A stretch of DNA of 64,000 nt from the NCBI RefSeq assembly GCF_056712565.1, contig NZ_CM160072.1, one strand, 5' to 3'. Every line of letters begins with the position of its first letter. The stretch's first letter is position 1. Below, in pieces: positions 1-64,000 of this stretch. A model generated the notes under the pieces. The model was given only the letters and a program-made list of their open reading frames with translations. It searched no databases and was not told the DNA's origin. A program made the translations under genes and the position numbers.

Positions 1-427
1 GATGTACGCACATCACATGAATCGCTTTCCCGGTCATCGGCGGCACAATGCGGCAGTAGAGCACGCCGCGCTTTTCCGCACCATCGACCGAAACATCACG
101 ATTCTCATAATGTTCAATGGGATAACGTGAAAGAACCGCATTACCGTGATGTCCTTCCGGGTATACGGCATTGCGACCGTAGGCGAAATCGCTCCACATG
201 GTGTCGGCGAGAAACTCGTAGTGCGAGGTATCGGGCCAGTTTTCCACATGCAGCGGATGAACTTCGTGCGCGCCCATCACTTCCTGCAGGCAAACAATAT
301 CGGCGCTGACGGTACGCACGGCGTCGCGAAGTTCCGGCAAAATGAAGCGTCGGTTAAACGCGGTAAAGCCTTTGTGAATATTGATGGTGAGCACCTTGAA
401 CGAAAATTGTTGTGTTTGATCGGGCAT
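1..427 (-). CDS. ybhP: YbhP endonuclease/exonuclease/phosphatase family protein, N-terminal part only (3' end lies left of the window)
   Basis: Reverse-strand translation from the ATG at 427-425 reads [21 protein letters not shown]..., recognised as the YbhP N-terminus; frame is open to position 1. Confidence 0.8.
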
Positions 428-559
428 AATTTTCCTGTCTTTGCCTCTTATCTCATTGAAATAGTGTAGTCGGCGTCACAAAAAGGTGCGGTCTTACGGA
501 ATTTTCCGTAAAGTTCGGTACTCTGAATAAGTAGAGATAAATTCTTCAGGAGAGAAGCC

Positions 560-970
560 ATGAAGTGGCAACAACGTGTTCGTGTCGCAACTGGCCTAAG
601 TTGCTGGCAGATTATGTTGCATTTACTGGTAGTGGCGCTGCTGGTGGTGGGCTGGATGAGTAAAACTCTGGTTCACGTCGGCGTAGGATTATGCGCACTG
701 TATTGTGTCACGGTAGTGATGATGCTGGTGTTTCAGCGCCACCCCGAGCAACGCTGGCGTGAGGTGGCAGACGTGCTGGAAGAGCTGACCACGACCTGGT
801 ATTTTGGCGCAGCGCTGATTGTTCTGTGGCTGTTGTCCCGCGTACTGGAAAACAACTTTGTGCTGGCGATTGCAGGGCTGGCAATCCTTGCCGGCCCGGC
901 GGTAGTGTCTTTGCTGGCGAAAGATAAGAAGTTACATCACCTTACGTCTAAACATCGCGTACGCCGCTGA
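560..970 (+). CDS. ybhQ: Inner membrane protein YbhQ (136 aa)
   Basis: [23 protein letters not shown]..., hydrophobic, length and sequence match YbhQ; 3' end overlaps convergent ybhR. Confidence 0.9.
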
Positions 971-2038
971 CCCTGTCGTGGCCGTTATCACCAGTAGCGG
1001 CCACAAACTATTCCACACAATATCCAGACTCGCATCCTTCAAATAAATCTGCTTGGTAATGTCCGTAAAGTGGCGAATAGGGTTAATCCACGTCAGATTT
1101 TGCAGCCACACTGGCATGTTTTCCACCGGCGAAACGTAACCGGAAAGGAGAATGGCGGGCATCATAAAGACAAACACGCCGATAAACGCCTGCTGTTGTG
1201 TTGAACAGAGTGATGAAATCAACAGACCGAATCCCACCAGCGATAAACCGTAAATCACCATCGTGAAGTAGAACAGCGCCAGCGATCCGGCGAAGGGGAT
1301 TTGATACGCCCAGATACCAATCGCCAGCACAATGGTGGCCTGGAAGGTGGCGACAATTAATGCCGGTACGGCTTTGCCGATGAATATCTGCCAGGTGGTG
1401 AGGGGCGAAACCAGCAACTGATCGAGCGTACCTTGTTCACGTTCACGGGCGACGGAAAGTGAAGTGACTATCATTACGCCGATAGTGGTGATCATGGCGA
1501 TCAGCGACGGCACCACAAACCATTTGTAGTCGAGATTCGGGTTATACCAGTTGCGTACCACCAGCTCGCTGTTGTTGGGTTTCGGTTTTCCTTCCAGCAG
1601 CTCCTGCTGATAATTTTTGACGATCTGTTGCAGGTAGTTGGCGGCAATTTGCGCACTGTTGGAGTTACGCCCGTCGAGGATCAACTGCAACGGCGCGGTC
1701 TGGAAGGTATCCAGTTTGCGCGAGAAGTCAGCCGGGAAACGCACCAGTAGTAACGCCTTTTGTGTGTCGATGGTCGGGCGGATCTCCTGCGGGCTTTTCA
1801 GCAGCAGCACATGGGTAAAGGCGCTGGCGCGGGCAAAACGTTGAGTAAGTTCTACCGAGTGCTCGCCGTTATCTTCATCGTAGATGGCGATGGTGGCGTT
1901 GGTCACTTCCAGCGTGGCGGCGAACGGGAACAGGATCACCTGAATTAGCACGGGTAAAATCAGAATTGCGCGGGTTTGCGGTTCGCGCAGCAGCGACTGC
2001 AACTCTTTGCGGATTAACGTCCATAAGCGATGAAACAT
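932..2038 (-). CDS. ybhR: ABC-2 family exporter permease YbhR (368 aa)
   Basis: 368-aa ORF with ABC-2 permease character; position downstream of ybhS as in the cecR-ybhGFSR operon. Confidence 0.92.
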
Positions 2039-2048
2039 GCTCTTCTCC

Positions 2049-3174
2049 CTAATCCAGCCGACGTTTGATTTTCAGCCACGTCAGGCCGATAAACATCACC
2101 GCCGAAGCGATCAAAAACAGCACGTTCACTATCAGCACCACTGGAATATTCCCGGCGAGGAACAGGCTTTGCAGGGTGCTGACGAAATAACGTGCGGGAA
2201 TAATGTACGTCACCGCGCGGATCACCGCGGGCATACTGTCTATCTGAAATATAAAGCCGGAAAGCATAATCGACGGCAGAAAAGCCGCGTTCAGGGCCAC
2301 CTGAGCGGCGTTGAACTGGTTGCGGGTAATCGTGGAAATCAGCAGCCCCATCCCCAGGGTACTGAGTAAAAACAGGCTGGAGATAAAAAACAGAATCAGC
2401 AGCGACCCGCGATACGGCACGCCGAGAATAAACACCGACACCAGCATACACAGCAACATCGCCAGCATCCCGAGAAAGTAATAAGGGATCAGCTTACACA
2501 GCAGCAGCTCCGTGCGGGTAATCTCCGTAGAGAGCAAAGCCTCCATGGTGCCGCGTTCCCATTCTCGCGCTACCACCAGCGAGGTGAGAATCGCGCCGAT
2601 GACCGTCATGATAATGGTCACCGCACCGGGGATAATAAAGTGCTGGCTTATCGCCGCGGGGTTAAACCAGTAGCGGGTTTGTACATCAATAAGCGGTTCA
2701 AAAGTCTGCCCGTTATCCTCCGCGCGCTGCATTTGCCAGATCTGCCAGATCCCTTCGACATACCCCTGCACAAAGTTAGCGGTATTCGGCTCACTGCCGT
2801 CGGTGATCACCTGAATCGGTGCGGTGGCGTTGGCGCGCTCCATCTGTTCGGCGAAATCCACCGGAATAACCACCAGACCGCGAATTTTCCCCGCCTGCAT
2901 TTTGGCGATCAGTTCCTGACGGTTATCGCTGATGGTGGCGTCGATGTAGGGCGAACCGGTCATGGTGTGGGTGAAATCCAGCGCCGCTTCGCTACGCTGT
3001 TCCAGTAAAATCCCGACGCGCAGCTTGCTGGAGTCGAGGTTAATGCCGTATCCAAAAATAAACAGCAGTAGCAGTGGGATCACTACCGCAATCAGCCAGC
3101 TACTCGGATCGCGAACGATCTGCCGTGTCTCTTTGACGCACAGCGCCCGCACGCGACGCCAGGACAGGATCGGA

Positions 3175-3182
<8 letters not shown>
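2049..3182 (-). CDS. ybhS: ABC-2 family exporter permease YbhS (377 aa)
   Basis: 377-aa ORF paralogous to ybhR; overlaps ybhF stop by 8 nt. Confidence 0.92.
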
Positions 3183-6573
<3,391 letters not shown>

Positions 6574-6801
6574 CGCACAGTCCATTCTTAATCAAATGAT
6601 TGATTAAGATTATGACTCCATAGGGGAGTTGTCCAGTATGGCTAAGAATTTTAGCTACGCCAGTCACAGGGATAATTTATGCGCTGCGTCACAAAAACTG
6701 CTACACTCCGCTCCCTCATGACATTGTGGTTTTTGTCATTTTCCTTTTCAGTATCTCCCTGAAAACTACACCGGTAACGGTCGGGGCGGTTCGGAGTAGT
6801 T

Positions 6802-8163
6802 ATGTCTTTCGATTCTTTGGGTTTAAGCCCTGATATCCTGCGCGCCGTTGCCGAGCAGGGTTACCGTGAACCCACCCCTATTCAGCAGCAGGCGATCCCT
6901 GCGGTGCTGGAAGGCCGCGACCTGATGGCCAGCGCCCAGACCGGTACCGGCAAAACAGCGGGCTTTACGCTGCCGCTGTTGCAACACCTGATCACTCGCC
7001 AGCCGCACGCCAAAGGGCGTCGTCCGGTACGCACGCTCATTCTTACCCCGACCCGTGAACTGGCGGCGCAGATTGGCGAAAACGTCCGTGATTACAGCAA
7101 ATATCTGAACATTCGTTCGCTGGTGGTGTTTGGCGGTGTCAGCATTAACCCACAAATGATGAAGTTGCGCGGCGGCGTTGATGTGCTGGTGGCAACGCCG
7201 GGACGTCTGCTGGACCTGGAACATCAAAATGCAGTGAAGCTGGATCAGGTTGAAATCCTCGTCCTTGATGAAGCTGACCGCATGCTCGACATGGGCTTTA
7301 TCCACGATATCCGTCGCGTGTTAACAAAACTGCCAGCGAAGCGCCAGAACCTGTTGTTCTCCGCGACCTTCTCTGACGATATTAAAGCCCTGGCGGAAAA
7401 ACTGTTGCACAACCCGCTGGAAATCGAAGTGGCACGCCGCAATACTGCGTCTGATCAGGTGACCCAGCACGTTCACTTTGTCGATAAGAAACGCAAACGC
7501 GAATTGCTGTCGCATATGATTGGGAAAGGGAACTGGCAGCAGGTGCTGGTGTTTACCCGTACCAAACATGGCGCTAACCATCTGGCTGAACAGCTTAATA
7601 AAGACGGCATCCGTAGTGCGGCGATCCACGGTAATAAATCGCAAGGTGCGCGTACTCGTGCGCTGGCCGATTTTAAATCGGGCGATATTCGTGTACTGGT
7701 GGCAACTGACATCGCTGCGCGCGGTCTGGATATCGAAGAGTTGCCGCACGTCGTCAACTATGAGTTACCAAACGTACCGGAAGATTATGTTCACCGTATC
7801 GGGCGTACTGGCCGTGCGGCGGCAACTGGCGAAGCATTGTCGCTGGTGTGTGTTGATGAACACAAACTGCTGCGTGATATCGAAAAACTGCTGAAAAAAG
7901 AGATCCCGCGCATTGCGATTCCGGGGTATGAGCCGGACCCGTCAATCAAAGCCGAACCGATCCAGAACGGTCGCCAGCAACGTGGCGGCGGTCGTGGACA
8001 GGGCGGTGGTCGCGGTCAACAGCAACCACGCCGTACGGAAAGTGGTGCGAAGTCTGGTAACGCGAAGCCCGCAGAAAAACCGTCTCGTCGTCTCGGCGAT
8101 GCCAAACCGGCAGGCGAACAACAACGTCGCCGCCGTCCGCGTAAACCTGCCGCTGCGCAGTAA
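6802..8163 (+). CDS. rhlE: ATP-dependent RNA helicase RhlE (DEAD-box)
   Basis: Q-motif and Walker A (AQTGTGKT), DEAD box ([14 protein letters not shown]), [11 protein letters not shown] motifs; Arg/Gly-rich C-terminal tail. Confidence 0.95.
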
Positions 8164-8214
8164 TCTTTTATGCCGGGCTATGCCCGGCATGAGACTGATG
8201 ACAAACACAAAACT

Positions 8215-8313
8215 GCCTGATGCGCTACGCTTATCAGGCCTACGTGAACTCTGCAATATATTGAATGTGCATGTTTTTGTAGGCCGGATAAGGCGCTCGC
8301 GCCGCATCCGGCA
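8215..8313. repeat. REP/BIME cluster (two inverted REP units) in the rhlE-ybiA intergenic region
   Basis: gcctgatgcgctacgcttatcaggcctac and gtaggccggataaggcg...cgccgcatccggca are canonical E. coli REP palindromes; preceded by hairpin tgccgggctatgcccggca at 8171-8189. Confidence 0.6.
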
Positions 8314-8395
8314 TTTCACAACAAGCACTTGTCAGCCATTTGCGAGCGCGGCAAAAAGATTTCTCTGTTTTAACGCCCACAAGCCACCCGATGCG

Positions 8396-8590
8396 TTACT
8401 TCTCCGCAGCCAATTGTCCGCGCAACGCCATTAAAAGGTACCCCAGGCGATTCTTGCCCTGACCATTACCGCCATCTCCCCAGTAAGCATCATTTTGCGT
8501 ATGCTCAACCAGTTTTGCGGACGCGGTTGCCCGCAAGAGTGTACGCAGTTCTGCATGTTGTTCGAATTTAGCGCGAAGCGCTTTACGCAT
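8396..8590 (-). pseudogene. ybiA: 5'-truncated remnant of ybiA (NADAR-family N-glycosidase); only the C-terminal ~64 codons are homologous
   Basis: Minus-strand ORF 8396-8701 (101 aa): last 64 aa (MRKALRAKFEQHAEL...DAYWGDGG...GKNRLGYLLM...) match the YbiA C-terminus; first 37 aa are read antisense through the dinG promoter and LexA box up to the dinG ATG. Intact YbiA is about 160 aa. Confidence 0.6.
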
Positions 8591-8666
8591 CATCCTGCTG
8601 GTTATTGCGAGCCGCTTTCCCGAAACAGAAAAACCATTACCCCTGAAAACCGAAAAATGCCACAAT

Positions 8667-8686
8667 ATTGGCTGTTTATACAGTAT
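8667..8686 (+). promoter_or_regulatory. dinG SOS (LexA) operator, non-canonical box
   Basis: tattggctgtttatacagta about 15-35 bp upstream of the dinG ATG; matches the known atypical dinG LexA site (from memory). Confidence 0.5.
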
Positions 8687-8699
8687 TTCAGGTTTTCTC

Positions 8700-10850
8700 A
8701 TGGCATTAACCGCCGCGCTTAAAGCGCAAATTGCCGCCTGGTATAAGGCGCTTCAGGAACAGATCCCCGACTTTATTCCCCGTGCGCCGCAGCGGCAGAT
8801 GATTGCGGACGTCGCCAAAACGCTGGCCGGAGAAGAAGGGCGGCATCTGGCGATTGAAGCCCCTACCGGCGTTGGGAAAACGCTCTCCTATTTGATCCCC
8901 GGCATCGCCATTGCCCGCGAAGAGCAAAAAACGCTGGTGGTAAGTACCGCCAACGTGGCATTGCAGGATCAGATCTACAGCAAAGATTTACCGCTGCTGA
9001 AAAAGATCATTCCCGATCTTAAATTCACTGCCGCTTTTGGGCGTGGGCGCTACGTTTGCCCGCGTAATCTGACAGCGCTCGCCAGCACTGAGCCCACGCA
9101 ACAGGATCTGCTGGCGTTTCTTGACGATGAACTGACGCCGAACAATCAGGAAGAGCAAAAACGTTGTGCGAAGCTGAAGGGCGATCTCGACACTTATAAA
9201 TGGGATGGTCTGCGCGATCATACTGATATCGCTATAGATGATGATCTCTGGCGTCGTTTGAGTACCGACAAGGCCAGCTGCCTCAACCGCAACTGTTATT
9301 ACTATCGCGAATGCCCGTTTTTTGTCGCTCGTCGGGAAATTCAGGAAGCGGAAGTGGTGGTGGCAAACCATGCGCTGGTGATGGCGGCGATGGAAAGCGA
9401 AGCGGTATTGCCTGACCCGAAAAATTTACTGCTGGTGCTGGACGAAGGTCATCACCTGCCGGATGTGGCGCGGGATGCGCTGGAGATGAGCGCCGAAATC
9501 ACCGCGCCGTGGTATCGGCTACAGCTGGACTTGTTCACGAAACTGGTCGCTACCTGCATGGAGCAGTTTCGCCCGAAGACCATCCCGCCGCTGGCGATCC
9601 CTGAACGTTTGAATGCGCATTGTGAAGAGTTGTATGAGCTTATCGCCTCGTTAAACAACATTCTCAATCTCTACATGCCTGCCGGGCAGGAGGCAGAGCA
9701 CCGTTTTGCGATGGGCGAACTGCCAGATGAAGTGCTGGAGATCTGCCAGCGGCTGGCAAAACTCACCGAGATGCTGCGTGGCCTGGCGGAGTTATTTCTT
9801 AACGATTTAAGTGAGAAAACCGGCAGCCATGACATTGTACGTCTGCATCGGTTGATTTTGCAGATGAACCGCGCATTGGGGATGTTCGAGGCGCAAAGCA
9901 AACTCTGGCGGCTGGCGTCTCTGGCGCAATCTTCCGGTGCGCCGGTGACCAAATGGGCGACGCGGGAAGAGCGCGAAGGGCAGCTACACCTTTGGTTTCA
10001 CTGCGTGGGAATACGTGTCAGCGATCAGCTGGAAAGGCTGCTGTGGCGCAGTATTCCGCACATTATTGTTACCTCCGCAACCTTGCGTTCGCTGAACAGT
10101 TTTTCGCGTTTGCAGGAGATGAGTGGGCTGAAAGAGAAAGCGGGCGACCGTTTTGTGGCACTGGATTCCCCTTTTAACCACTGTGAACAGGGCAAAATTG
10201 TTATTCCCCGGATGCGCGTTGAGCCTTCCATCGACAACGAAGAGCAGCACATTGCCGAAATGGCGGCCTTTTTCCGTGAACAGGTGGAGAGCAAAAAACA
10301 TCTCGGTATGTTGGTGCTGTTTGCCAGCGGGCGTGCGATGCAGCGCTTTCTCGACTATGTGACGGATTTACGCCTGATGTTGCTGGTGCAGGGCGATCAG
10401 CCACGTTATCGCTTAGTTGAACTGCACCGCAAACGCGTTGCCAACGGTGAGCGTAGCGTGCTGGTGGGCTTACAGTCCTTTGCCGAAGGTCTTGATCTGA
10501 AAGGCGATCTGCTCAGCCAGGTGCATATCCACAAGATCGCTTTTCCGCCCATCGACAGCCCGGTGGTGATCACCGAAGGTGAATGGCTGAAAAGCCTCAA
10601 CCGCTATCCGTTTGAGGTGCAAAGCCTGCCGAGCGCTTCGTTTAACCTGATTCAGCAGGTTGGGCGACTGATTCGAAGCCACGGTTGCTGGGGGGAAGTG
10701 GTTATCTACGACAAACGCTTGCTGACAAAAAATTATGGCAAGCGACTACTGGATGCATTACCGGTATTTCCGATAGAGCAACCGGAAGTCCCTGAAGGTA
10801 TAGTTAAAAAGAAAGAAAAAACGAAATCCCCACGCCGTCGGCGGCGTTAA
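8700..10850 (+). CDS. dinG: ATP-dependent DNA helicase DinG (716 aa)
   Basis: 716-aa ORF MALTAALKAQIAAWYKALQEQ..., Walker A APTGVGKT, DEGHH box, Fe-S cluster cysteines (CLNRNCYYYRECPFF). Confidence 0.95.
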   Translation: MALTAALKAQIAAWYKALQEQIPDFIPRAPQRQMIADVAKTLAGEEGRHLAIEAPTGVGKTLSYLIPGIAIAREEQKTLVVSTANVALQDQIYSKDLPLLKKIIPDLKFTAAFGRGRYVCPRNLTALASTEPTQQDLLAFLDDELTPNNQEEQKRCAKLKGDLDTYKWDGLRDHTDIAIDDDLWRRLSTDKASCLNRNCYYYRECPFFVARREIQEAEVVVANHALVMAAMESEAVLPDPKNLLLVLDEGHHLPDVARDALEMSAEITAPWYRLQLDLFTKLVATCMEQFRPKTIPPLAIPERLNAHCEELYELIASLNNILNLYMPAGQEAEHRFAMGELPDEVLEICQRLAKLTEMLRGLAELFLNDLSEKTGSHDIVRLHRLILQMNRALGMFEAQSKLWRLASLAQSSGAPVTKWATREEREGQLHLWFHCVGIRVSDQLERLLWRSIPHIIVTSATLRSLNSFSRLQEMSGLKEKAGDRFVALDSPFNHCEQGKIVIPRMRVEPSIDNEEQHIAEMAAFFREQVESKKHLGMLVLFASGRAMQRFLDYVTDLRLMLLVQGDQPRYRLVELHRKRVANGERSVLVGLQSFAEGLDLKGDLLSQVHIHKIAFPPIDSPVVITEGEWLKSLNRYPFEVQSLPSASFNLIQQVGRLIRSHGCWGEVVIYDKRLLTKNYGKRLLDALPVFPIEQPEVPEGIVKKKEKTKSPRRRRR

Positions 10851-10877
10851 TGATGTGAGTCAGGTAAGGAGTCGTAA

Positions 10878-13066
<2,189 letters not shown>

Positions 13067-13213
13067 AAAAAGCCCGTCCAGTGGCGGACGGGCAAACAAG
13101 GGTAACATAGGATCAATGAGGGTTAGAGCATATGCGTCTGTCGGCAAACAGACAGGGAAATACTTGTGCTGAACGTAGCGTAAACGCCTGATCCAGCCAA
13201 CGGTTCGGATTTT

Positions 13214-13290
13214 GTAGGTCTGATAAGACGCGGTAGCGTCGCATCAGGCATCTGTTGCCGGATGCGGCGTAAACGCCTTATCCGTCCTAC
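13214..13290. repeat. REP/BIME cluster in the hcxB-ybiJ intergenic region
   Basis: gtaggtctgataagacgcggtagcgtcgcatcaggca followed by ccggatgcggcgtaaacgccttatccgtcctac. Confidence 0.6.
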
Positions 13291-13293
13291 GAA

Positions 13294-13554
13294 TTACTTA
13301 TAAATTACCGCAGTACCGCTTAATTTATTGTTGTTGGTGGCAGAAGTGATGCTGTATCCACTGGCACCGGCCGCCGCGGCTTTCTCAGCCAGTTTCGCTT
13401 CCAGGGCATCGAGGGTGGATGCGCCATCGGCAGAAACCACGCCGATTTTATTCATGTTCTGTGCCTGGGATGCCGTTACCGGTTCCGCCGCGAACACGCC
13501 AAATGACAGAGTTGAAAGAGCCATAGCAGCAACAACAGTATTGATAGTTTTCAT
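13294..13554 (-). CDS. ybiJ: YbiJ, small secreted DUF1471 (BhsA/McbA-family) protein (86 aa)
   Basis: Signal peptide MKTINTVVAAMALSTLSFGVFAAE and C-terminal GASGYSITSA...GTAVIYK motif shared with McbA. Confidence 0.88.
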   Translation of the reverse strand: MKTINTVVAAMALSTLSFGVFAAEPVTASQAQNMNKIGVVSADGASTLDALEAKLAEKAAAAGASGYSITSATNNNKLSGTAVIYK

Positions 13555-13818
13555 AATTAATCTCTCGCAGGTGATTTTTGTATAAGTGACGTTGTTTCGT
13601 CGATGTGATGAGTATCACGTTTTTTTACGAGAGATAAAATCGAAGAGAATTGACCGCCTTGTTCAAATAAATTGATTGATATCTAACATACTGATAAACC
13701 ATTTATTTGTTGTATTTATGAATCCGTTTTGTACCGCGTGGTGCTCACGGCAGCGTTAAAGGCACGGAATGCCACGCAAAATACAAATTACACTCACTAA
13801 ACATCCCGTCAGTTGCAG

Positions 13819-14085
13819 TTAACGTAACTGGCTGTCTTTCGAACCTCTGCGATTATATCCTGTATAAGCTGGTTTTTGTAAATCTTTCTCCTGTTGGCAA
13901 TGAATGCATAAGCGCACGCCAGGAATGGCTTCCCGACGGGCCTGCGGGATAGGGGCACCGCACTCTTCACATTCATACAGGCTTTCGCCACGCGGAATTT
14001 CACCCCGAGCGCGGGCAATCGCATCTTCAATTGTACTGTTGATCTGTTCGTTGACGGCGTCATCATTAGCCCAACCGGATGCCAT
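13819..14085 (-). CDS. ybiI: YbiI, DksA/TraR-type C4 zinc-finger protein (88 aa)
   Basis: CxxC...CxxC motif (CEECGAPIPQARREAIPGVRLCIHCQ). Confidence 0.88.
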   Translation of the reverse strand: MASGWANDDAVNEQINSTIEDAIARARGEIPRGESLYECEECGAPIPQARREAIPGVRLCIHCQQEKDLQKPAYTGYNRRGSKDSQLR

Positions 14086-14158
14086 ATCGTCCTCCCCATA
14101 TCAATACTTGTACAGTTAAGTGTAGCTAATATAGGGACGAACTCGGGCAGTTCAAGCG

Positions 14159-14836
14159 TCAGATCTCCGACCATTCCCGCAGCAGATTATGATAAAGATT
14201 GAGCAGTGACAGGATCTCTTCACTTTCGCCGTAGCGGCTTTTCAGCGACTGAATATTGTTGTCCAGTTCAAACAGCATGGCGCGCTTTTTATCATCACGG
14301 ATCATCGACTGGATCCACATAAATGATGCCACTCGCACGCCGCGGGTTACGGGTGTCACGCAATGCAGGCTGCTGGAGGGATACAACACCAGATCGCCTG
14401 CCGGGAGTTTTACCCGATGTTGCCCGAAGGTGTCATTAACGACCAGTTCGCCGCCGTCGTAGCTTTCTGGATCGCTTAAAAACAGCGTGGCAGAAAGGTC
14501 AGTGCGCATCCAGCCGTTTTGTGGATGGCTGCGTACTGCGCCATCCACATGAAAACCATAGGTTTCATTGTTCTGATAGCGATTAAACAGCGGCGTGGAA
14601 AGGGTACGCGGCAAGGCCGCGGCAAAGAACAAAGCATGTTGGTTAACCGCGTTCAGCACCTCATTTTGCAGGGCGGCGTACAGGGCGCTGCGGGTGTCTA
14701 CTTGTTGATTGTTCTTAACTTGCGCACCTTGTGCGCCGGTGGTGACGCGCCCATCCACCCATTCGGCTTGTTCCAGTTGTTCGCGAAAACGGGCGACGTC
14801 CTGTGGCGATAACACGCCGGGAATGTGGTACATCAT
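14159..14836 (-). CDS. ybiX: YbiX, PKHD-type Fe(II)/2-oxoglutarate-dependent hydroxylase (225 aa)
   Basis: Start trimmed to [12 protein letters not shown]; lies immediately downstream of fiu on the same strand (fiu-ybiX operon). Confidence 0.88.
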
Positions 14837-14902
14837 ACAAGTTCTCCAAAAAGTGGGGCCTGCGCCCCACACCGATTTTTAACAGCAGGCAATGGTGCTC
14901 AG

Positions 14903-15002
14903 GTGCCGGATGCGGCGTGAACGCCTTATCCGGCCTACCAAATGATGTGAATTCAGTGTATTGCACAACCTTGTAGGCCTGATAAGCGCAGCGCATCAGG
15001 CA
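14903..15002. repeat. REP/BIME cluster in the ybiX-fiu intergenic region
   Basis: gtgccggatgcggcgtgaacgccttatccggcctac and gtaggcctgataagcgcagcgcatcaggca. Confidence 0.6.
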
Positions 15003-17041
15003 GTCCTGCTCTCGCCATCAACATTAGTGAGCCTTGCGCCCCACATCTGAATCAGAAATGCATATTGGCTGTGAGCAAGAAGGTTCTTGGCTCGCCCGGG
15101 TGATAACGGTAGCCGCTCTTATTGATTGAGGCGACGTAATCGGTATCAAACAGGTTGTAGACGTTTAGCTGGAAGTCGAGATTGCGATTAACCCGATACC
15201 CCAGTTTGGCGTCGGCGACCCAATAACCTTCGGTAAATGCTGGCGTCCCCACCGCGCCGTCTGAACCTTTATGCATACTGCCGATATACCGTGCGCCCGC
15301 ACCAACAGAAATATCATCGGTTGCCTGATACTGGCTCCATAAGGTGAAGGCGTGTTCCGGGGTATACGGCAGCGATGAGGAACCATCCTGGGCAACATCT
15401 TTGCCGTTTTTGATAGTTGCTTTTTGCTGGGTATAGCCGCCAATCATCTGCCACGCGGGAGTGATATTCCCGGCCACGGATATCTCGTAGCCTTCGACAC
15501 GTTTCTTACCATATTGCGAATAAGTCCCGTCATCATTTTGCTCAACTTCATTTTCAATATCAGTACGGAACAGCGCGGCGGTAAGTAGCAGGCGTTTATC
15601 CAGAACCTGCCATTTGGTGCCAATCTCGCTGGTGTTGGCTTTTTGCGGTTTAAAATCGGTGCGGTTGGCACTGTTACCGCTGCCAGACTGCGCAAGGGCG
15701 AAGTTGTTGCCGCCCGGCGGCTGCTGGGAAACGGCATAGTTAATATAGATATTGCCGTTTTCCGTCAGGTGATACAGCGCCCCGGCTTTCCAGTTCACCA
15801 GATTGCCCGACTTGGCGGTGTCGACGGTGGTGACCGGAGAACCTTTTGCCACGCCAGCAGGGCAGGTGATGGCACCGCGCCCGCTGCCGCCGCAGGCGGT
15901 GGCACTGTCATATTCAGTATGATAATTATCCAGACGGATCCCACCGTTCAGCTCAAAATCACGGGTGATTTGCAGCGTATCGAAGGCATAAATTGCGAAG
16001 GTATCCGTCTGACCATTGGCGTTTGCGCCGTTGCGCGTCAGGCCACCGGGATGAATGCTGCTGTCAGGATGATAAATATTTACCGCCGGTAACGTCACCG
16101 GATTAACGCCATAGTTAGTCTGTGTTTCGCGGGTAAATTCCACGCCGGTACTGACATCATGACCGATAGCGCCGGTATAGAACGTCGAGGTCAGGTTGGT
16201 CTGGTTGGTGAGAATTTTGTTACTCACATCTTTGGTATTCGCCGTACGTGACCACGTCCAGCTATTCACATCGCTGGTGGGCTGGGTAATATTCGACGCT
16301 CCACCCATAATCGCCGTCATCAGGTAATCCTGCTTTACGCGCGACCAACGCGTAGTGTTGCGAATGGTGGTGTTATCGTTGATGTCGTGCTCAAAACGCA
16401 TGGTAGCGGTGTCGGTGGTCGAATCGTCGTAATCGGAATCCGTGCCGTAAAAGTTATGAGTATCAACTTTTCCGGAATGATTCAGGGCCGCTGTTCCCGC
16501 AGATGGGGCAGAATAACCCGGTAAACCGATGGTCGGAATGCCGCCGTCTGGCGTGTTGTGTTGGGTGACATGCAGATAATTAAGATACAAACGATTCGCT
16601 GTACCAAGGCCAAAAGCGACAGAAGGGGCGACGCCGTAACGCTCATTTTTGACTTTGTCGCGTCCGGCATCGTGCGTTTTTTCGCCCATTACATTCAGGC
16701 GCACCGCAGTGGTATCACCAATGACCTGATTGACGTCCAGCGTGCCGCGGCGGAACCAGGCGCTGCCAATACTGGCGGAGGCGTCAATGCCGGAATCATT
16801 GCGCGGCTGTTTGCTGATCATATTGATCGAGCCTGTCGGCGCGCTGCGCCCGTAGTCGGTGCCGGACGGCCCTTTAATTACTTCGACCTGCTCGGTATTG
16901 AAGGTGTCGCGCGAGACGCTGCCGATATCGCGAATGCCATCGATATAAATACTGTTAGAGGTATCGGCACCGCGCATATAAATGGCGTCGCCAGTGGTGG
17001 AGTTACCGTTCTCACCCGCAAAAAACGCACCCACGCCGGGG

Positions 17042-18467
17042 TAATGCCGATCAGTTAAGGATCAGTTGACCGATCCAGTGGCTGTGTAAGAATCCGGAAA
17101 CGCTCACTTGTTTCCGGATTTTTTTATGCACATTGGACAGGCTCTTGATCTGGTATCCCGTTACGATTCTCTGCGTAACCCACTGACTTCTCTGGGGGAT
17201 TACCTCGACCCCGAACTCATCTCTCGTTGCCTTGCCGAATCAGGTACTGTAACGCTACGCAAGCGCCGTCTTCCCCTCGAAATGATGGTCTGGTGTATTG
17301 TTGGCATGGCGCTTGAGCGTAAAGAACCTCTTCACCAGATTGTGAATCGCCTGGACATCATGCTGCCGGGCAATCGCCCCTTCGTTGCCCCCAGTGCCGT
17401 TATTCAGGCCCGCCAGCGCCTGGGAAGTGAGGCTGTCCGCCGCGTGTTCACGAAAACAGCGCAGCTCTGGCATAACGCCACGCCGCATCCGCACTGGTGC
17501 GGCCTGACCCTGCTGGCCATCGATGGTGTGTTCTGGCGCACACCGGATACACCAGAGAACGATGCAGCCTTCCCCCGCCAGACACATGCCGGGAACCCGG
17601 CGCTCTACCCGCAGGTCAAAATGGTCTGCCAGATGGAACTGACCAGCCATCTGCTGACGGCTGCAGCCTTCGGCACGATGAAGAACAGCGAAAATGAGCT
17701 TGCTGAGCAACTTATAGAACAAACCGGCGATAACACTCTGACGTTAATGGATAAAGGTTATTACTCACTGGGACTGTTAAATGCCTGGAGCCTGGCGGGA
17801 GAACACCGCCACTGGATGATACCTCTCAGAAAGGGAGCGCAATATGAAGAGATCAGAAAACTGGGTAAAGGCGATCATCTGGTGAAGCTGAAAACCAGCC
17901 CGCAGGCACGAAAAAAGTGGCCGGGACTGGGAAATGAAGTGACTGCCCGCCTGCTGACCGTGACGCGCAAAGGAAAAGTCTGCCATCTGCTGACGTCGAT
18001 GACGGACGCCATGCGCTTCCCCGGAGGAGAAATGGGGGATCTGTACAGTCATCGCTGGGAAATCGAACTGGGATACAGGGAGATAAAACAGACGATGCAA
18101 CGGAGCAGGCTGACGCTGAGAAGTAAAAAGCCGGAGCTTGTGGAGCAAGAGCTGTGGGGTGTCTTACTGGCTTATAATCTGGTGAGATATCAGATGATTA
18201 AAATGGCGGAACATCTGAAAGGTTACTGGCCGAATCAACTGAGTTTCTCAGAATCATGCGGAATGGTGATGAGAATGCTGATAACATTGCAGGGCGCTTC
18301 ACCGGGACGTATACCGGAGCTGATGCGCGATCTTGCAAGTATGGGACAACTTGTGAAATTACCGACAAGAAGGGAAAGGGCCTTCCCGAGAGTGGTAAAG
18401 GAGAGGCCCTGGAAATACCCCACAGCCCCGAAAAAGAGCCAGTCAGTTGCTTAACTGACTGGCATTA
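17042..18467 (+). mobile_element. IS4 insertion sequence (1426 bp) with 18-bp imperfect terminal inverted repeats and a 13-bp target-site duplication
   Basis: Left end taatgccgatcagttaag, right end (reverse complement) taatgccagtcagttaag; direct repeat acccacgccgggg at 17029-17041 and 18468-18480; encodes the IS4 transposase. Confidence 0.92.
17126..18454 (+). CDS. insG: IS4 transposase InsG (442 aa)
   Basis: [33 protein letters not shown]... recognised as IS4 transposase; ORF track starts 6 codons upstream. Confidence 0.92.
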
Positions 18468-18877
18468 ACCCACGCCGGGGACGTTTTTGAGCGCGTCGGT
18501 AAGGTTGGTTGCACCCTGATCTTTAATCACTTGTTCAGAAATCACCGTCATCGTGCGGGTAGTATCCGCTACCGGACGCGAGAATTTCGGATCGGCAGAT
18601 TGTTGTGGCGCATAAAGCGAAGGCGTTGATGCTTCGACAACCAGCGTGTCATCCGCGTTAGCTTGCCCTTCGGCAGCGAGTGCCTGCGCCACAGGCGTAA
18701 TACCAATACAAAGACCGGCAAAGAACGTGAGCGAATGAAATTGTCTGGCAGGGAAATTGCGATTGTTTTCCATTTTGCAGGTGACTTTTTCTTATATGGT
18801 GAAATTTTCACTGTCACGAGAAAGCATCTCTGCGGATGCGATGCCACTGTTAATCCCGTGATAGCGTCCGTGCAAGT

Positions 18878-18902
18878 GATAATAATTTTGATAAGTATTA
18901 TC
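18878..18902. promoter_or_regulatory. Putative Fur box upstream of fiu
   Basis: gataataattttgataagtattatc resembles the Fur consensus gataatgataatcattatc; about 105 bp upstream of the fiu start codon. Confidence 0.45.
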
Positions 18903-19037
18903 ACTTGGCGCGATTTTCTATCACCCATTGCGCGAAAAAGAAATACATTTATTTACATTGCGTTCATATTTGATGTTTTTTGCTTACAAATCGGACGAAA
19001 ACTGCATCCAGAGGCGAATGCAGTTACGTTGGTGGGG

Positions 19038-19298
19038 TTATTTGTAGATGATTGCAGTACCGAACATCTGGTCATTTCCGCCTGCGGAATTAATGACATA
19101 ACCTTTCGCGCCTTGTTCGCGCGCTTTTTCTGCCAGTTTATCCTCCAGATCGCTTAGGTTTGATGCGCCAGTTGCCGAAACGGTACCGGCGGGCCGTAGT
19201 TGACCACTGTCCAGGTTACTCATCGGTTGCGCGGCATAAGCCGTGAGAGAGATTCCGCTCAGGACGGTGGCAATCAGTAGTGTGAGGCACTTTTTCAT
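19038..19298 (-). CDS. mcbA: McbA/YbiM, small periplasmic DUF1471 protein (86 aa)
   Basis: Start trimmed to MKKCLTLLIATVLSGISLTAYA (signal peptide); C-terminal GAKGYVINSAGG...GTAIIYK. Confidence 0.88.
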   Translation of the reverse strand: MKKCLTLLIATVLSGISLTAYAAQPMSNLDSGQLRPAGTVSATGASNLSDLEDKLAEKAREQGAKGYVINSAGGNDQMFGTAIIYK

Positions 19299-19573
19299 AA
19301 TGACATCCTCATAAATACAACGGGTAGTGCCAGATAAGTGTAGGTCGCCTGCGCGATGAAAATGACGCAAAAAATTGACAGAGATGTGCTTATTTTTTGA
19401 ACGATATGTTTTTACAAAATAAGACAAATCAATGACATGCATGATGATGATTTTTATGGTGAATTGCCATAAACCATAGCCATGTGAAGGTTTTTAGAAA
19501 TGATAAACGCAGCCAGATATTTACCCTGTCGCGTTATGCGGGTATCTTACGCCGCTGCTTAAAGGAGAATGCT

Positions 19574-20500
19574 ATGTCCGCCCAGAAACCGGGGTTGCAT
19601 CCGCGCAACCGTCATCACAGCCGCTACGATCTCGCCACGCTTTGTCAGGTCAATCCTGAACTCAGGCAATTCCTCACGCTTACACCCGCCGGGGAGCAAA
19701 GCGTAGACTTTGCCAATCCGCTGGCGGTGAAGGCGCTCAATAAGGCGTTGCTGGCCCATTTTTACGCCGTAGCGAACTGGGATATCCCGGACGGTTTTCT
19801 CTGCCCACCAGTACCGGGTCGGGCGGATTATATTCATCACCTTGCCGATTTACTGGCAGAAGCAAGCGGAACAATTCCAGCTAATGCCAGCATTCTGGAT
19901 ATCGGCGTTGGTGCGAACTGTATTTATCCGCTGATTGGCGTACATGAATATGGCTGGCGTTTTACTGGTAGTGAAACCAGCAGCCAGGCGTTAAGCAGTG
20001 CGCAGGCGATCATCAGTGCTAATCCGGGGCTTAACCGCGCCATTCGTCTGCGTCGGCAAAAAGAGAGTGGGGCGATTTTTAACGGCATCATCCATAAAAA
20101 CGAGCAATACGATGCGACCTTGTGTAACCCGCCATTCCACGATTCCGCCGCTGCGGCACGGGCAGGTAGTGAACGTAAACGCCGTAACCTGGGGCTGAAC
20201 AAAGACGATGCACTGAACTTTGGTGGTCAGCAACAGGAGTTGTGGTGTGAAGGCGGTGAGGTCGCTTTTATCAAAAAGATGATTGAAGAGAGCAAAGGCT
20301 TCGCGAAGCAGGTGATGTGGTTTACCTCGCTGGTATCTCGTGGTGAAAACTTACCGCCGTTGTATCGTGCTCTGACGGACGTAGGTGCGGTGAAGGTGGT
20401 AAAAAAAGAGATGGCCCAGGGGCAAAAGCAGAGCCGCTTTATAGCCTGGACCTTTATGAACGACGAGCAGCGCCGCCGTTTTGTCAATCGCCAGCGTTAA
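19574..20500 (+). CDS. rlmF: 23S rRNA m6A1618 methyltransferase RlmF (308 aa)
   Basis: Start trimmed to [23 protein letters not shown]-binding motif [16 protein letters not shown] and NPPF catalytic motif. Confidence 0.92.
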
Positions 20501-22722
20501 AGCGTTGGTTCCCCCGGCGGCAACGGTTCAGCCGGGGTCGCGCCCGGAGCAGGCAGCACCTGATAAGTCTGCACTGGCGCGCGAACGCCCGCCAGGTCGA
20601 AATGTTTTTTCACCTGGCTGTCGAGGGCAAAGCGTACCGTCCACTGTTTGAGTGGCAGCGTGGTGAACGAAACACGCAGTGTAAACGCGGTATTGCTTAA
20701 GCCGACAATCCCGGCAAAATTCGGTTCACCAATAATCAGCCCGCGAATTTCTTCGTTTTCCATTAATTCCGCTACCGCATCTTTCAGTGCCTGATTGGCT
20801 TTATCAGCATCTTCATGGCGATCAACATCGTAGTTTGCCACTACCGAACCAATACCGCGGACGAAGTTAGCAAAGGTGGTTATCGAAGACCACGGAATGA
20901 TGTGATACGCCCCGGTATCCTGGCGCACGCCCACGGAGCGAATCGACATCCGTTCCACAGTGCCGGTCAACGGCCCGATAGTCACCAAATCTCCAGTGTT
21001 CATGCCGTTTTCAAACTGAATAAATACTCCGGTAATAATATCTTTCACCAGCGTTTGCGAACCAAACGAGATAGCCAGACCTAATGCCCCGGCACCTGCC
21101 AGCAATGGCGCGATATTGACGCCGATTTCCGACAACACAATCATGATGGTGATGGTACTGATAATCACCGCCAGCGCGTTACGGAACAGCGTCAGCAGGG
21201 TTCGCGTACGGGCGCTGGGTAGCGGGCGGCCATGAATATCCGAAGCCAGCCGGTTTTCTATCAAACTGGCGAGCACCGTCCAGCCAACCGCCGAGAAGAA
21301 AAGAATGAGTGCGATACGGATCAGGATATCTACGGTTTTCTGCCCCGCGCCGTTTTGCAGCCAGTTCCAGAAATCGAACAATCCCCATGCGCTCAACAGC
21401 AGCATTACCGCCACGCAGACTGTCAGAATACGCGCTGTTTTCAGTGCCGCCGAAAGCCAGCCATTCAGCCGTTTTTGCAGCTCCGGATAATTTCGCTGAG
21501 TATGTGGCGAGAGGGTGATGGTTTTCGCCAACCAGCGGGAAAACATACCGGAAACAAATGCTGCGATACCAATAATCGCCAGGCTGCGCACCGTTGCACC
21601 CATCATAAATTTCAGGCTGTTGCCCGGATCGAACAACGAAAAGAAAAACAGCACGATAAAATAGGCGCTTGCCAGCCAGTGCCACACCAGCGCAAAGGCG
21701 CGGATAAACAGGCTGAAAAAGGCCAGCGAATGCTCCGCAAAATTGAGCAAATGCTGGGTGATCTCTTTTTTATTACGAAAAATCAGGTACAACGCCCAGA
21801 CGGTCATGCACAGCATAATGATGACGTTCGCCAGCGCACCTATCTGTACATTCACCTGATTAGAGATAATCGGCACAGCCACAATCAGACCATAGCCAAT
21901 CAGGCTGCTTAACCAGCTCAGGCGACGACTCCAGTAACGGGCGGTCTCGTCATGAATCGTGAACGGGCGCAGTTCAGCCACGTTTGGGCAAAAAATCAGG
22001 CGTAGTACGGCTTTGAAAAATTCAATCAGGGCAAAGGCGTTGAGAAACAAACTTTGTTGGAAAGCGATGGTGCGACTGCCCGCATTCAGGTTGTCGCTTA
22101 ATACCTGGCCGACAAATAATGTCAGTGCCAGTAACAGCAGGTCGATAATAAACGCCCCGATGATCATCGCCGGAAGCTGCAACCAGTTACTGCGCTCACG
22201 ATTTTTTTGCCGCGCCCACTGGCCCATTTTGCGATACAGCGGCAGTGCGCACAGACGAATCAGCCAGTAAAAACCAAACACTAATACCGCTAACATTGAA
22301 AAGTGGGTCAGCGCATTGCTGAAGGTTTGTGGATTAAACGGCTTATGCGGGGAGCCGGTGATATTGCGATAAAGTTGCCCGAAGCGGGCGGAAAGGGCTT
22401 CACCATAATGGCGGCTGACTTCGGTGACTTTTTGCAGCACGGTTTGCTCTTCAACCAACGTCGGCGGCACGATCTTCGGTACGGGTTCCGCAGGAGGCGT
22501 AGCGGCGACGGTGCGCAACTGGTCGATCAACTCTTTACGCGAGGTGTCATTATCCAGCACATCCGCCAGTGCGCCATAGGCCGCTTTTTTTTGTTCGATA
22601 TCCGGTTCCGGGGCCGGTTCAGTCGTTGAGTCCGTTGTCGTTGTGGTTGTAACGCCGGGTATGGATACCGCGTGGGCAGGTGCGCCCAACAGGCAGAAGA
22701 GGATGAACAGGATCCACCGCAT
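20497..22722 (-). CDS. ybiO: Mechanosensitive channel YbiO (MscS family, 741 aa)
   Basis: Start trimmed to [18 protein letters not shown]; multiple TM segments and MscS-like C-terminal domain; Thr-rich low-complexity stretch after the signal peptide. Confidence 0.9.
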
Positions 22723-22838
22723 GACTCCTCCAGTGAGAAAATAGAGCAAAAAGATAAGTATAGATGCTGGAGGCTGGGCGATTTTAAATGAGAGGAATCT
22801 GGTGTGCCTCCCTTTCGGGGGAAAGGGAGGCTGAGAAG

Positions 22839-23561
22839 TTAAGAGACGTGCTGCAAAAATTCCTGCAAGCGCTGGCTCGGTGGGTTCTTGATCAACACCT
22901 GCGGATCGCCATCTTCCGCAATCCGGCCTTTGTCGATAAAGATCAGGCGCGAAGCTACTTTCTCGGCAAAACCGATTTCGTGTGTCACGATCACCATCGT
23001 CATCCCTTCTTCAGCCAGATCCTGCATAACCTTCAGCACTTCATGGCGCAGTTCCGGGTCAAGAGCGGAAGTCGGTTCATCAAACAGCATCATTTTCGGC
23101 TTCACCGCCAGCGCGCGGGCAATCGCCACACGCTGCTGTTGACCACCAGAAAGTTCGGAAGGGTAGTGATGTGCACGTTCTGCCAGACCGACTTTCGCCA
23201 GGAGCTCACGCGCCAGTTTTTCCGCCTCTTCTTTATTCGCGCCACGCACGCGTAGCGGGCCAAACATGACGTTTTCCAGCGCCGTCAGATGCGGGAAGAG
23301 GTAAAACTGCTGGAACACCATACCCGCTTCCTGGCGAATCAGGCGCTCATCAACTTTCGGATCGTTAACCTTCAGGCCATCGACAATCAGATCGCCGGAG
23401 GTGATTTCTTCCAGTTTGTTGATGCAGCGCAGCAGGGTCGATTTACCGGAACCGGACGGCCCGATAATCACCACGACTTCGCCCTGAGCAATGTTCAAAT
23501 CGATATTGTGCAGCACCTGGGTTGGACCAAAATGCTTGGAGACGTTTTTAAATTCAATCAC
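22839..23561 (-). CDS. glnQ: Glutamine ABC transporter ATP-binding protein GlnQ (240 aa)
   Basis: Walker [10 protein letters not shown], signature LSGGQQQRV, Walker [11 protein letters not shown]. Confidence 0.95.
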
Positions 23562-24217
23562 AGGATTTTCATCCTTCTTTCCAGACGACGCAGAATAAAG
23601 CTCAGCACCAGGGTAATAATCAGATAGAACACCGCCACGGCGCTCCAGATCTCAAGGGCGCGGAAGTTACCGGCAATAATTTCTTGCCCCTGACGGGTCA
23701 GTTCCGCCACGCCGATAACAATAAACAGCGAAGTGTCTTTAATGCTGATGATCCACTGGTTACCCAGCGGCGGCAGCATACGACGCAGTGCCAGCGGTAA
23801 AATGACGTAGCGAATGGTTTCCCAACGTGAAAGACCGAGCGCCAGTCCTGCTTCACGAAAACCTTTGTGAATAGATAGCACCGCACCACGCGTGATTTCC
23901 GCAATGTACGCGCCGGAGTTGATCATGATGGTGACCACCGCCGCAGTAAACGGGTCGATGCGTAAATCGTTAAACGCCATCGGCAGGGCGAAATAGATAA
24001 ACATCACCTGGACGACGATAGGTGTGCCGCGGATCACTTCAATAAAGACCAGCGCGACGTGGTTGGCTATCCAACCACCGAAGGTGCGTGCAAAACCTGC
24101 CAACAATCCGATCACCAGACCGCCAGCCAGACCGAGGACCGAAATCCACAGGGTCATTTTGGCACCTTCAATCAGAAGCGGAATGGCAGGCCAGATGGCA
24201 CTCCAGTCAAACTGCAT
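23558..24217 (-). CDS. glnP: Glutamine ABC transporter permease GlnP (219 aa)
   Basis: 219-aa polytopic ORF; 4-nt overlap with glnQ. Confidence 0.95.
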
Positions 24218-24301
24218 ATGTTGTTCCTGTTACCGTGGTGTAAATAATCAAATTCAGGGTAATTAATGGCCCCGGAGCGGGTTTGCGCCCTTCACCCTAA
24301 T

Positions 24302-24322
24302 CCTCTCCCCGGCGGGGAGAGG
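24302..24322. other. Intercistronic stem-loop between glnH and glnP
   Basis: Inverted repeat cctctcccc-ggc-ggggagagg; typical of the stabilising hairpin downstream of the periplasmic binding protein gene in ABC operons. Confidence 0.35.
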
Positions 24323-24355
24323 GAACTGCCAGTGCGCTTTACAGGCGCCGCGTTA

Positions 24356-25117
<762 letters not shown>

Positions 25118-28083: not shown

Positions 28084-28109
28084 ATCCGCCTCTCGGGGCG
28101 GATTTTTTT
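28084..28109. terminator. Bidirectional rho-independent terminator between convergent ompX and opgE
   Basis: Stem atccgcc/ggcggat with loop tctcgg, A-run upstream and T-run downstream. Confidence 0.6.
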
Positions 28110-63579: not shown

Positions 63580-63627
63580 TAGATAAATTTCAGGCAACAA
63601 AAAAACCATTTATGTAAACGGGTTAAT

Positions 63628-63665
63628 GAAAACAATAAGTTAGATTAAAAACAATAAGTTAGGTT
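63628..63665. repeat. Tandem direct repeat (2 x ~18 bp) between rcdA and the integrase stop
   Basis: aaaacaataagttagatt followed directly by aaaaacaataagttaggtt; AT-rich. Confidence 0.45.
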
Positions 63666-63683
63666 GGTGGTCAGTGGTGGTTA

Positions 63684-64000
63684 TTACGGGGTAATGCCAA
63701 CCGCTGCCGCCACTTTGTCGCCACTTGGCAGCGTTGCCAGAGGATTGAAACGGAGCGCCGTTTCCAGATGATCCGGTGCCAGATGTGCGTAACGCATAGT
63801 CATTTTTATATCGTGGTGTCCGAGAATTTTTTGTAAGGCCAGAATGTTTCCACCCGACATCATGAAGTGCGCCGCAAACGTATGGCGCAGAACGTGTGTG
63901 AGTTGACCGCGAGGGAGCACGATAGACGTTTTTTCCATCACGGATAAAAATTGAAAATAGCAGTCTGTGAAGAAATTGAACCCATCAAGCGCCATGATCT
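63684..64000 (-). CDS. Phage-type tyrosine recombinase (integrase), C-terminal catalytic part only; gene continues beyond the window end
   Basis: Minus-strand translation ...LTHVLRHTFAAHFMMSGGNILALQKILGHHDIKMTMRYAHLAPDHLETALRFNPL... carries the conserved HxxR box and the RY(A)H tyrosine nucleophile motif of the integrase family; it resembles P2-family integrases (from memory, unverified). Confidence 0.8.
   Translation of the reverse strand, partial: IMALDGFNFFTDCYFQFLSVMEKTSIVLPRGQLTHVLRHTFAAHFMMSGGNILALQKILGHHDIKMTMRYAHLAPDHLETALRFNPLATLPSGDKVAAAVGITP

Follow-up and report, generated by a model that had tools for sequence, protein, structure and literature searches.

The window, by which we mean the whole 64-kb stretch of DNA that was analysed, contains an insertion sequence of the IS4 type inside fiu. 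The positions and strands of the element, of its internal signals, of the two parts of the interrupted gene and of the flanking target are presented in Table 1. The gene order ybiX-fiu-mcbA-rlmF is conserved, based on the annotation of collinear loci. The stop codon of the 5' fragment of fiu is a TAA supplied by the IS4 terminus. RefSeq labels the equivalent 5' piece as a pseudogene 'missing C-terminus' and the 3' piece as a pseudogene 'missing N-terminus'. Regulation of fiu by Fur is well established; the best match to a Fur box upstream of the gene lies at 18884-18902 (5 mismatches in 19 positions), and a promoter-like site overlaps it. No further IS4 copies are found in the 64-kb window, and Rfam and tRNA scans of the window return nothing related to the element.

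Table 1. Features of the interrupted fiu locus (positions are those of the window)
Feature	Position	Strand	Description
ybiX, downstream of fiu on the same strand	14159..14836	-	Annotation in isogenic loci
fiu 3' fragment	15052..17041	-	Rest of the plug and whole barrel; without signal peptide or own promoter
Left arm of IS4 target	17018..17041		A-run, CGC and palindromic core
Target-site duplication, left copy	17029..17041		ACCCACGCCGGGG; directly abuts the element
Complete IS4 element	17042..18467	+	1,426 bp
Left terminal inverted repeat (IRL)	17042..17059	+	TAATGCCGATCAGTTAAG
Promoter-like site	17066-17093	+	TTGACC-16-AAGAAT; consensus match
Hairpin followed by T-run	17091-17125	+	AATCCGGAAAC/GTTTCCGGATT; directly before the transposase ATG; read from the sequence
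IS4 transposase gene	17126..18454	+	442 aa from ATG, uninterrupted
Terminator-like hairpin inside the IS4 right end	about 18428..18463	-	11 pairs, T-rich tail; consensus match only
Right terminal inverted repeat (IRR)	18450..18467	+	16/18 positions match IRL
Target-site duplication, right copy	18468..18480		ACCCACGCCGGGG; directly abuts the element
fiu 5' fragment	18468..18773	-	102 codons: signal peptide, TonB-box region and start of the plug
Right arm of IS4 target	18481..18491		ACG and T-run

The element and the gene that it divides

The element belongs to the IS4 subgroup of the IS4 family and is IS4 itself; it agrees with all the family criteria that we tested. Members of the subgroup are 1,400-1,650 bp long and carry the end signature -AATR--------WTW (PMC2266710 Table 1), and their target duplications are of 10-13 bp (PMC2266710). 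The size of the element falls within this range, its IRL has AATG at positions 2-5 and TTA at positions 14-16, and the duplication is of exactly 13 bp. The terminal repeats are imperfect: over 18 bp, TAATGCCGATCAGTTAAG and the right end read in reverse complement, TAATGCCAGTCAGTTAAG, match at 16 positions. At the nucleotide level 1,425 of the 1,426 positions are identical to the insG IS4 of a K-12-type O16:H48 strain, and some copies in other E. coli are 100% identical to that of the window. The IS4 of E. coli K-12 (insG) is the founding member of both the family and the subgroup. It shares with the window element the length, the inverted repeats, the single ORF, both Pfam domains and the YREK motif, and the duplications of both copies fall between 10 and 13 bp (12 bp for the K-12 copy, 13 bp here). 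The K-12 copy differs in its chromosomal location and in its target, which is not palindromic, scores low and was duplicated over 12 bp.

Concerning the transposase, RefSeq places the start at an upstream TTG (17108), which gives a protein of 448 aa. The translation contains the Pfam domains Nterm_IS4 (residues 18-109) and DDE_Tnp_1 (residues 126-352), and scores 299.6 bits against the NCBIfam IS4-family equivalog transpos_IS4_1 (cut-off 115). The YREK motif (Y(2)R(3)E(6)K) is intact, and the protein is a single-ORF DDE transposase. The sole difference from the K-12-type transposase is M386I, which results from one non-synonymous base change. The initial annotation had called the element potentially active, and this is plausible given the intact ORF and motif, the single substitution, and the presence of the identical IS variant, reversed, in the sister strain HS13-1. 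The occurrence of that variant at the same site but in opposite orientation suggests that IS4 has been active in this lineage. The promoter-like site and the hairpin that precede the gene (17066..17125) may limit or insulate transposase expression. The hairpin of the right end faces transcription arriving from the fiu promoter and could have a polarity effect.

The 64-kb window contains just two copies of ACCCACGCCGGGG, both adjoining IS4. When IS4 and one copy of the repeat are deleted in silico, the result is a minus-strand ORF of 2,283 nt, free of internal stops, that encodes 760 aa. This restored protein scores 1,505.9 bits (cut-off 686) against the Fiu equivalog NF007349, with residues 1-760 of 760 covered, and the DNA after excision has the same sequence as fiu of strain Z0117EC0054, annotated there as WP_000430008.1. 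The initial annotation, which was made from the letters alone, had described a complete 1426-bp IS4 (17042-18467) with 18-bp imperfect repeats and an intact 442-aa transposase, which splits fiu and is flanked by a 13-bp direct repeat whose removal in one copy restores a 760-aa frame. The analysis confirms this description throughout: the uninterrupted transposase ORF has the expected domains and equivalog match, the flanking 13-mers are identical, and the two fragments, in frame after excision, give a protein that matches Fiu. Repeats such as IS elements are at times joined wrongly in assemblies, so a copy of IS4 could have been misplaced into fiu at this step. The probability of such an artefact is negligible, since clean junctions and a perfect 13-bp duplication that restores the frame are the signature of real transposition, and the same architecture is present in 76 independently finished genomes.

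Empty sites and the age of the insertion

Matches to the first 25 kb were sought in 5,426 complete E. coli genomes, a collection to which the window's own genome does not belong. The genome of Z0117EC0054 is 100.000% identical to positions 1-17041 and 18468-25000 of the window, so that a total of 23.5 kb is identical to an empty site; the 13-bp repeat, and nothing more, is contained in both alignments. This overlap at a natural empty site shows that the duplication was made by the insertion and is not due to chance. Several genomes with an empty site (Z0117EC0054, ZJ3920, SF-468 and MS15052) have flanks of 100.0% identity and are exactly 1,439 bp shorter. In the closest relatives by flank the site is either empty or holds a reversed IS4, and the combination of the window haplotype, this orientation and the 13-bp duplication is found in no genome of the 5,426-genome collection. 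B2/ST95-like strains have the same flanks as the window, and the source strain probably belongs to this lineage.

Based on these comparisons of sequence, the insertion is real, recent and private to the source strain, and it is predicted to make a null fiu allele. Its recency follows from the 23.5-kb flanks shared with an empty site, together with the absence from the collection of the above combination of haplotype, orientation and duplication. The initial annotation had also considered the insertion recent, in part because of the perfect duplication. The conclusion stands through the flanks of the empty sites, whereas a perfect 13-mer is weak evidence of recency, because perfect duplications also surround decayed copies of IS4 elsewhere (frameshifted in strain 2-1, with a 17-bp deletion in AR_0077).

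The relatives with the opposite orientation offer another derivation, namely that the window allele arose from one of these alleles (HS13-1, APEC 16-1068, OZ546991) through excision and re-insertion of the same copy. The flanks of HS13-1 and of the window are 100.0% identical over 25 kb and the IS shows 0 differences, with the lineage-marking A at IS position 1242 common to both copies; the orientation and the length of the duplication (12 bp in HS13-1, 13 bp in the window) differ. The prophage that adjoins rcdA is present in APEC 16-1068 and OZ546991 as well. This derivation is nevertheless very improbable: it needs precise excision to a single target copy and then re-capture of the element at the same site. 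Since empty sites with identical flanks exist (SF-468, ZJ3920, MS15052 and Z0117EC0054), it is simpler to suppose that the site was hit twice, independently, by another copy of this IS variant.

Recurrent insertion of IS4 at one position of fiu

IS4 is found at the same position of fiu in 76 of the 5,426 complete E. coli genomes (about 1.4%). In 30 of these the orientation is that of the window, based on a match to the left junction, and in 46 it is the opposite one, which was counted by means of a synthetic junction with IS4 reversed. The carriers come from fox, goose, sheep, pig, seawater and humans. We fetched 17 carrier loci, picked for diversity, which together with the window make 18 alleles. 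The left boundary (…CCGGGG immediately before the IS) is common to all the fetched loci. Five junction classes are found among the 18 alleles, based on orientation and duplication length: +13, +12, -12, -13, and -13 with one mismatch. The flank haplotypes of the alleles are separated by as many as 120 differences in about 4 kb (up to 3%), and these start 33-70 bp from the IS on both sides. Zero flank differences are seen between sites in different states: the window (+13), HS13-1 (-12) and the empty site form one such set, and S1-ZIM-01-A (+12) and WP7-S17 (-12) form another. VR50 and BR1220 share their flanks, and their IS4 copies are 1 and 12 SNPs from the IS4 of the window.

Looking at the genomes with the window's orientation separately, the 30 could all descend from one ancestral event, with the window allele as an inherited copy, as they have the left junction and the orientation in common and some copies are clearly old (frameshifted or deleted IS4, extra frameshifts in fiu). 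Carriers of this orientation differ, however, in the duplication (12 or 13 bp), in the IS variant (0-12 SNPs) and in the flanks (up to 120 differences in about 4 kb), the window haplotype occurs with an empty site at 100.000% over 23.5 kb, and no genome of the collection combines the window haplotype and orientation. Inheritance of an old insertion is already contradicted by these data and is extremely unlikely. For the whole set of carriers, a single ancient shared insertion is rejected by orientation, duplication length, IS variants and flank haplotypes. Spread of an IS-bearing allele by recombination is rejected as well, since the haplotypes differ already at 33-70 bp from both junctions.

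At least 16 independent events are present among the 18 alleles; this count merges genomes that share orientation, duplication length and flanks, and, as a minimum for this sample, should not be read as a rate. The position in fiu is thus a recurrent hotspot of IS4, a fact that the initial annotation overlooked. Split fiu is already annotated by RefSeq in dozens of genomes (76 complete E. coli carriers). These fiu::IS4 carriers, e.g. FDAARGOS_1252, VR50, UMNF18, HS13-1 and ECONIH1, have the same insertion point and the split-pseudogene annotation, and FDAARGOS_1252 and strain 2-1 have the orientation and the 13-bp duplication of the window too. None of the other fiu::IS4 alleles, though, combines the flank haplotype, orientation and duplication length of the window, so the window allele is a separate event. 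Our literature searches found no report of fiu as an IS4 hotspot. The population pattern at fiu may be unreported, yet it is what one would expect from a property of IS4 that is already known. The element, the target gene and the split annotation are not new either, and the present knowledge of IS4 and Fiu is left unchanged.

This property is the target preference of the element. IS4 classically uses few sites, in either orientation, and inserts in the pheST attenuator; its narrow target choice and its variable duplications of 11-13 bp are likewise classical. To model the target, one genome per species was scanned for the exact 28-nt IS4 right end, which gave 69 contigs from many Enterobacterales. 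The weight matrix was built from 67 non-redundant outward flanks of Enterobacterales other than E. coli, on the assumption that IS4 of E. coli has the same preference. The half-site seen in the 67 flanks has C at +1 and +4, G at 9-12, C or G at 13-14 and a T-run at 17-23. In the duplicated segment, all four outer pairs are complementary in 27 of the 67, compared with 0.9% of random 13-mers. IS4 therefore prefers a GC-rich palindrome of roughly 12-13 bp that is bordered, at a distance of 2-3 bp, by an A-run to one side and a T-run to the other. Bidirectional Rho-independent terminators have this shape. The derived target agrees with the classical IS4 consensus AAA-N20-TTT. With this model of the target (a palindrome enclosed by an A-run and a T-run) the landing sites of IS4 can be predicted, which helps to interpret IS4 polymorphisms.

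The empty fiu site, GCAAAAAACGC-ACCCACGCCGGGG-ACGTTTTTGAG, encodes L-K-N-V-P-G-V-G-A-F-F-A of the Fiu plug. The target site is present in all 18 of the alleles examined, and the constraint of the protein sequence on the plug codons is the likely reason why it persists. Among the 187,488 combinations of position and length scored in the restored window, the fiu site comes 27th, or 8th when only distinct sites are counted, with a score about 4 SD higher than the mean. The best-scoring site of the window is the ompX/opgE terminator (28087-28098), where IS4 is found in 5 genomes (2 + 3 by orientation); the prediction of the model for this site is therefore borne out. At the fumA/fumC terminator IS4 is found in 29 genomes (16 + 13 by orientation). 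As a quantitative predictor of occupancy the consensus score fails across these three sites: the scores are 15.2 for fiu, 31.7 for fumA/fumC and 32.3 for ompX/opgE, with 76, 29 and 5 occupied genomes, respectively. Due to this mismatch, target preference alone does not explain why fiu is the site most often hit or retained. A strong DNA hairpin is also not supported as an explanation of the fiu site (-8.4 kcal/mol; z of -1.55, compared with -6.8 for the ompX terminator). The site resembles those of other insertion sequences with a selective preference for terminator-like or REP-like palindromes, with regard to the A/T-flanked palindrome, the use of both orientations and the fact that true terminators are also hit. 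Unlike a terminator, however, it lies inside coding sequence and forms a weak hairpin, yet of the three sites measured it has the highest occupancy. Its excess occupancy could mean that insertions are better tolerated here than in terminators, that they are sometimes advantageous, or that the matrix misses a determinant.

If advantage is the main driver, positive selection for the loss of Fiu (by microcins, catechol-conjugated beta-lactams or phage) would account for the recurrence, and IS4 would be only a convenient mutagen. The occupancy of fiu is 2.6 times that of fumA/fumC and 15 times that of ompX/opgE, though both score about twice as high. fiu is also among the functions lost convergently in Shigella, which the authors suggest may have been positively selected (PMC2617782), and IS4 is expanded in Shigella (PMC7373316). 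Natural nonsense alleles of fiu are found in MccE492-resistant E. coli (PMC10926693), and Fiu is an entry route for cefiderocol (PMC5740388). However, all 76 insertions are at one nucleotide position of a 2,283-bp gene; selection for the loss of function would accept any position, so the focus on a single one must come from the transposase. Moreover, occupancy is of the same order (29 genomes) at intergenic terminators, whose interruption destroys no gene, the loss of fiu alone shifts the cefiderocol MIC only 2-3-fold or less, and hosts such as fox, goose, sheep, pig, seawater and humans do not suggest a drug-driven pattern. A mutation-accumulation study (PMC5009759) describes 8 new IS4 insertions in lines under minimal selection, 4 of them in coding sequence. 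We consider selection as the main driver possible but unlikely. A stronger form of this idea, which is rather improbable, is that the plug codons, through their likeness to a terminator, make fiu a mutational 'contingency' locus, where IS4 would at an unusually high rate, and perhaps reversibly by precise excision, turn off a receptor open to exploitation by microcins, catechol antibiotics and possibly phages, and where the excess occupancy relative to intergenic sites of better match would reflect recurrent positive selection across E. coli and Shigella.

The explanation that we prefer, and hold to be highly probable, is a recent transposition of canonical IS4 into a recurrent, target-like site of fiu. 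Canonical IS4 would have transposed recently into codons 99-103 of the gene, where the transposase would have made cuts staggered by 13 bp, and repair would have duplicated ACCCACGCCGGGG. The product would be an N-terminal stub of 102 aa and 658 codons (103-760) without promoter or signal peptide. The position is not random, as the plug codons K-N-V-P-G-V-G-A-F-F spell a target of this form. The site is hit repeatedly, in either orientation and with duplications of 12 or 13 bp, and it probably persists across E. coli because the protein sequence constrains these codons. Carriers would survive because the function of Fiu overlaps with those of CirA and FepA, and the loss of Fiu may sometimes be helpful against catecholate microcins or catechol-conjugated beta-lactams.

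Predicted consequences for the source strain

The source strain is predicted to be null for Fiu, because what is left of the gene is a stub of 102 codons and a 3' fragment that has no promoter or signal peptide. Expression of ybiX from the fiu promoter is probably reduced too, since transcripts from this promoter would enter the right end of IS4 and meet the terminator-like hairpin. Of its three routes of catecholate uptake the strain would thereby keep two, and cefiderocol-type drugs would be left with one of their two entry routes; one of the receptors for microcins of the MccE492 type would also be gone.

We expect the phenotype to be mild. The initial annotation had pointed out that Fiu is an entry route for siderophore-conjugated antibiotics; this is correct, but the effect has to be tempered, as the loss of fiu alone has a small effect. 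The cefiderocol MIC changes 2-3-fold or less when fiu alone is lost, and 16-fold when both cirA and fiu are lost (PMC5740388; bioRxiv 10.1101/2025.11.06.687119). The fiu null allele would therefore matter together with a defect of cirA. With the known loss alleles of cirA and fiu, which reduce susceptibility to cefiderocol or microcins, the window allele shares the disruption of a TonB-dependent catecholate receptor that serves as a Trojan-horse route (PMC5740388, PMC10926693, PMC6926462). Among these alleles the main clinical effect is that of cirA, which lies outside the window, whereas that of fiu alone is small; also, unlike the known resistance-linked alleles, nothing links the source strain of the window to drug exposure. 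When cefiderocol or microcin susceptibility is predicted from genotype, fiu::IS4 should be checked, because short-read pipelines often miss IS insertions. The practical use of this for resistance genotyping is modest.

Colicin-like toxins had also been named in the initial annotation as users of Fiu. The documented users are catecholate microcins such as MccE492 (PMC10926693) and not classical colicins; in one genome paper, fiu is termed the receptor for an 'iron-regulated colicin' (PMC2617782).

Target sites and terminator-like structures of IS4

The fumA/fumC terminator is a further IS4 hotspot: in this intergenic region (L090 and L091; L-numbers label loci of other genomes), IS4 lies within the terminator CCGCCCTTCGGGG and is flanked by a 13-bp duplication, and the occupied genomes are split by orientation into 16 and 13. 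The gene upstream in this region is labelled ‘fumB’ by PGAP. Of all sites in the window, the ompX/opgE intergenic terminator best fits the consensus of IS4 targets, scoring 32.3; this site carries no IS4 in the window and is occupied, in both orientations, in 5 complete E. coli genomes. The element itself contains a hairpin with a T-rich tail just inside each end, so that an element which targets terminator-like sites itself bears terminator-like structures. Judged from the sequence, both hairpins would face against transcription arriving from outside the element; the left one follows a promoter-like site and precedes the ATG of the transposase gene. The coordinates of these and the other features are presented in the table.

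Features of the window
Feature	Position	Strand	Basis
naRNA4 (REP-derived nucleoid-associated RNA)	13217-13287	-	Rfam match, 72.7 bits
ybiX-fiu spacer	14837-15051
Hairpin and T-rich tail, IS4 left end	17091-17125	+	read from sequence
Hairpin and T-rich tail, IS4 right end	18438-18463	-	consensus match
ompX/opgE intergenic terminator	28087-28098		IS4 target consensus
Segment diverging from HS13-1, with tyrosine recombinase C-terminus, …HDIKMTMRYAHLAPDHLETA…	63606-64000	-	sequence comparison with HS13-1

Distribution of IS4 ends and older-looking fiu::IS4 alleles

The exact 28-nt IS4 end is present across many Enterobacterales (L021-L089), and apparent copy-number expansions are seen at contig ends in Kosakonia oryziphila REICA_142, Budvicia diplopodorum D9, Buttiauxella sp. 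A111 and Silvania hatchlandensis. Unexpected matches were also found in one Oscillospiraceae MAG and one Chryseobacterium assembly, which may result from contamination.

Four fiu::IS4 alleles look older: those of 14EC007 (L004; one A>C mismatch in the duplication), AR_0077 (L016; a 17-bp deletion in IS4), strain 2-1 (L003; a 1-bp frameshift in IS4) and FDAARGOS_944 (L012; an additional frameshift in the fiu fragment). The duplications around the decayed IS4 copies of AR_0077 and 2-1 are still perfect. Two other genomes with fiu::IS4, 2017C-4173W12 and LR-58-2 (H10 and H11), also contain IS200C in the 200 nt of fiu adjoining the IS4 junction.

REP-related sequence and the rcdA-ybjL interval

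The ybiX-fiu spacer of the window is approximately 215 nt long and contains the REP/BIME-like sequence GCCGGATGCGGCGTGAACGCCTTATCCGGCCTAC. Among the sampled strains, the long spacer is confined to those whose haplotypes most resemble that of the window, namely HS13-1, FDAARGOS_1252 and GN02350; in the remaining ones it measures 41 nt. The sole match in the Rfam scan of the 64-kb window is naRNA4.

At the other end of the window, the sequence diverges from that of the close relative HS13-1 directly past the rcdA terminator, where the C-terminal part of the recombinase is located. RefSeq gives the recombinase adjoining rcdA the name ‘phage integrase’ in 1,059 genomes, APEC O1:K1:H7 strains among them, and this annotation indicates that the rcdA-ybjL interval holds an integrated prophage or island.
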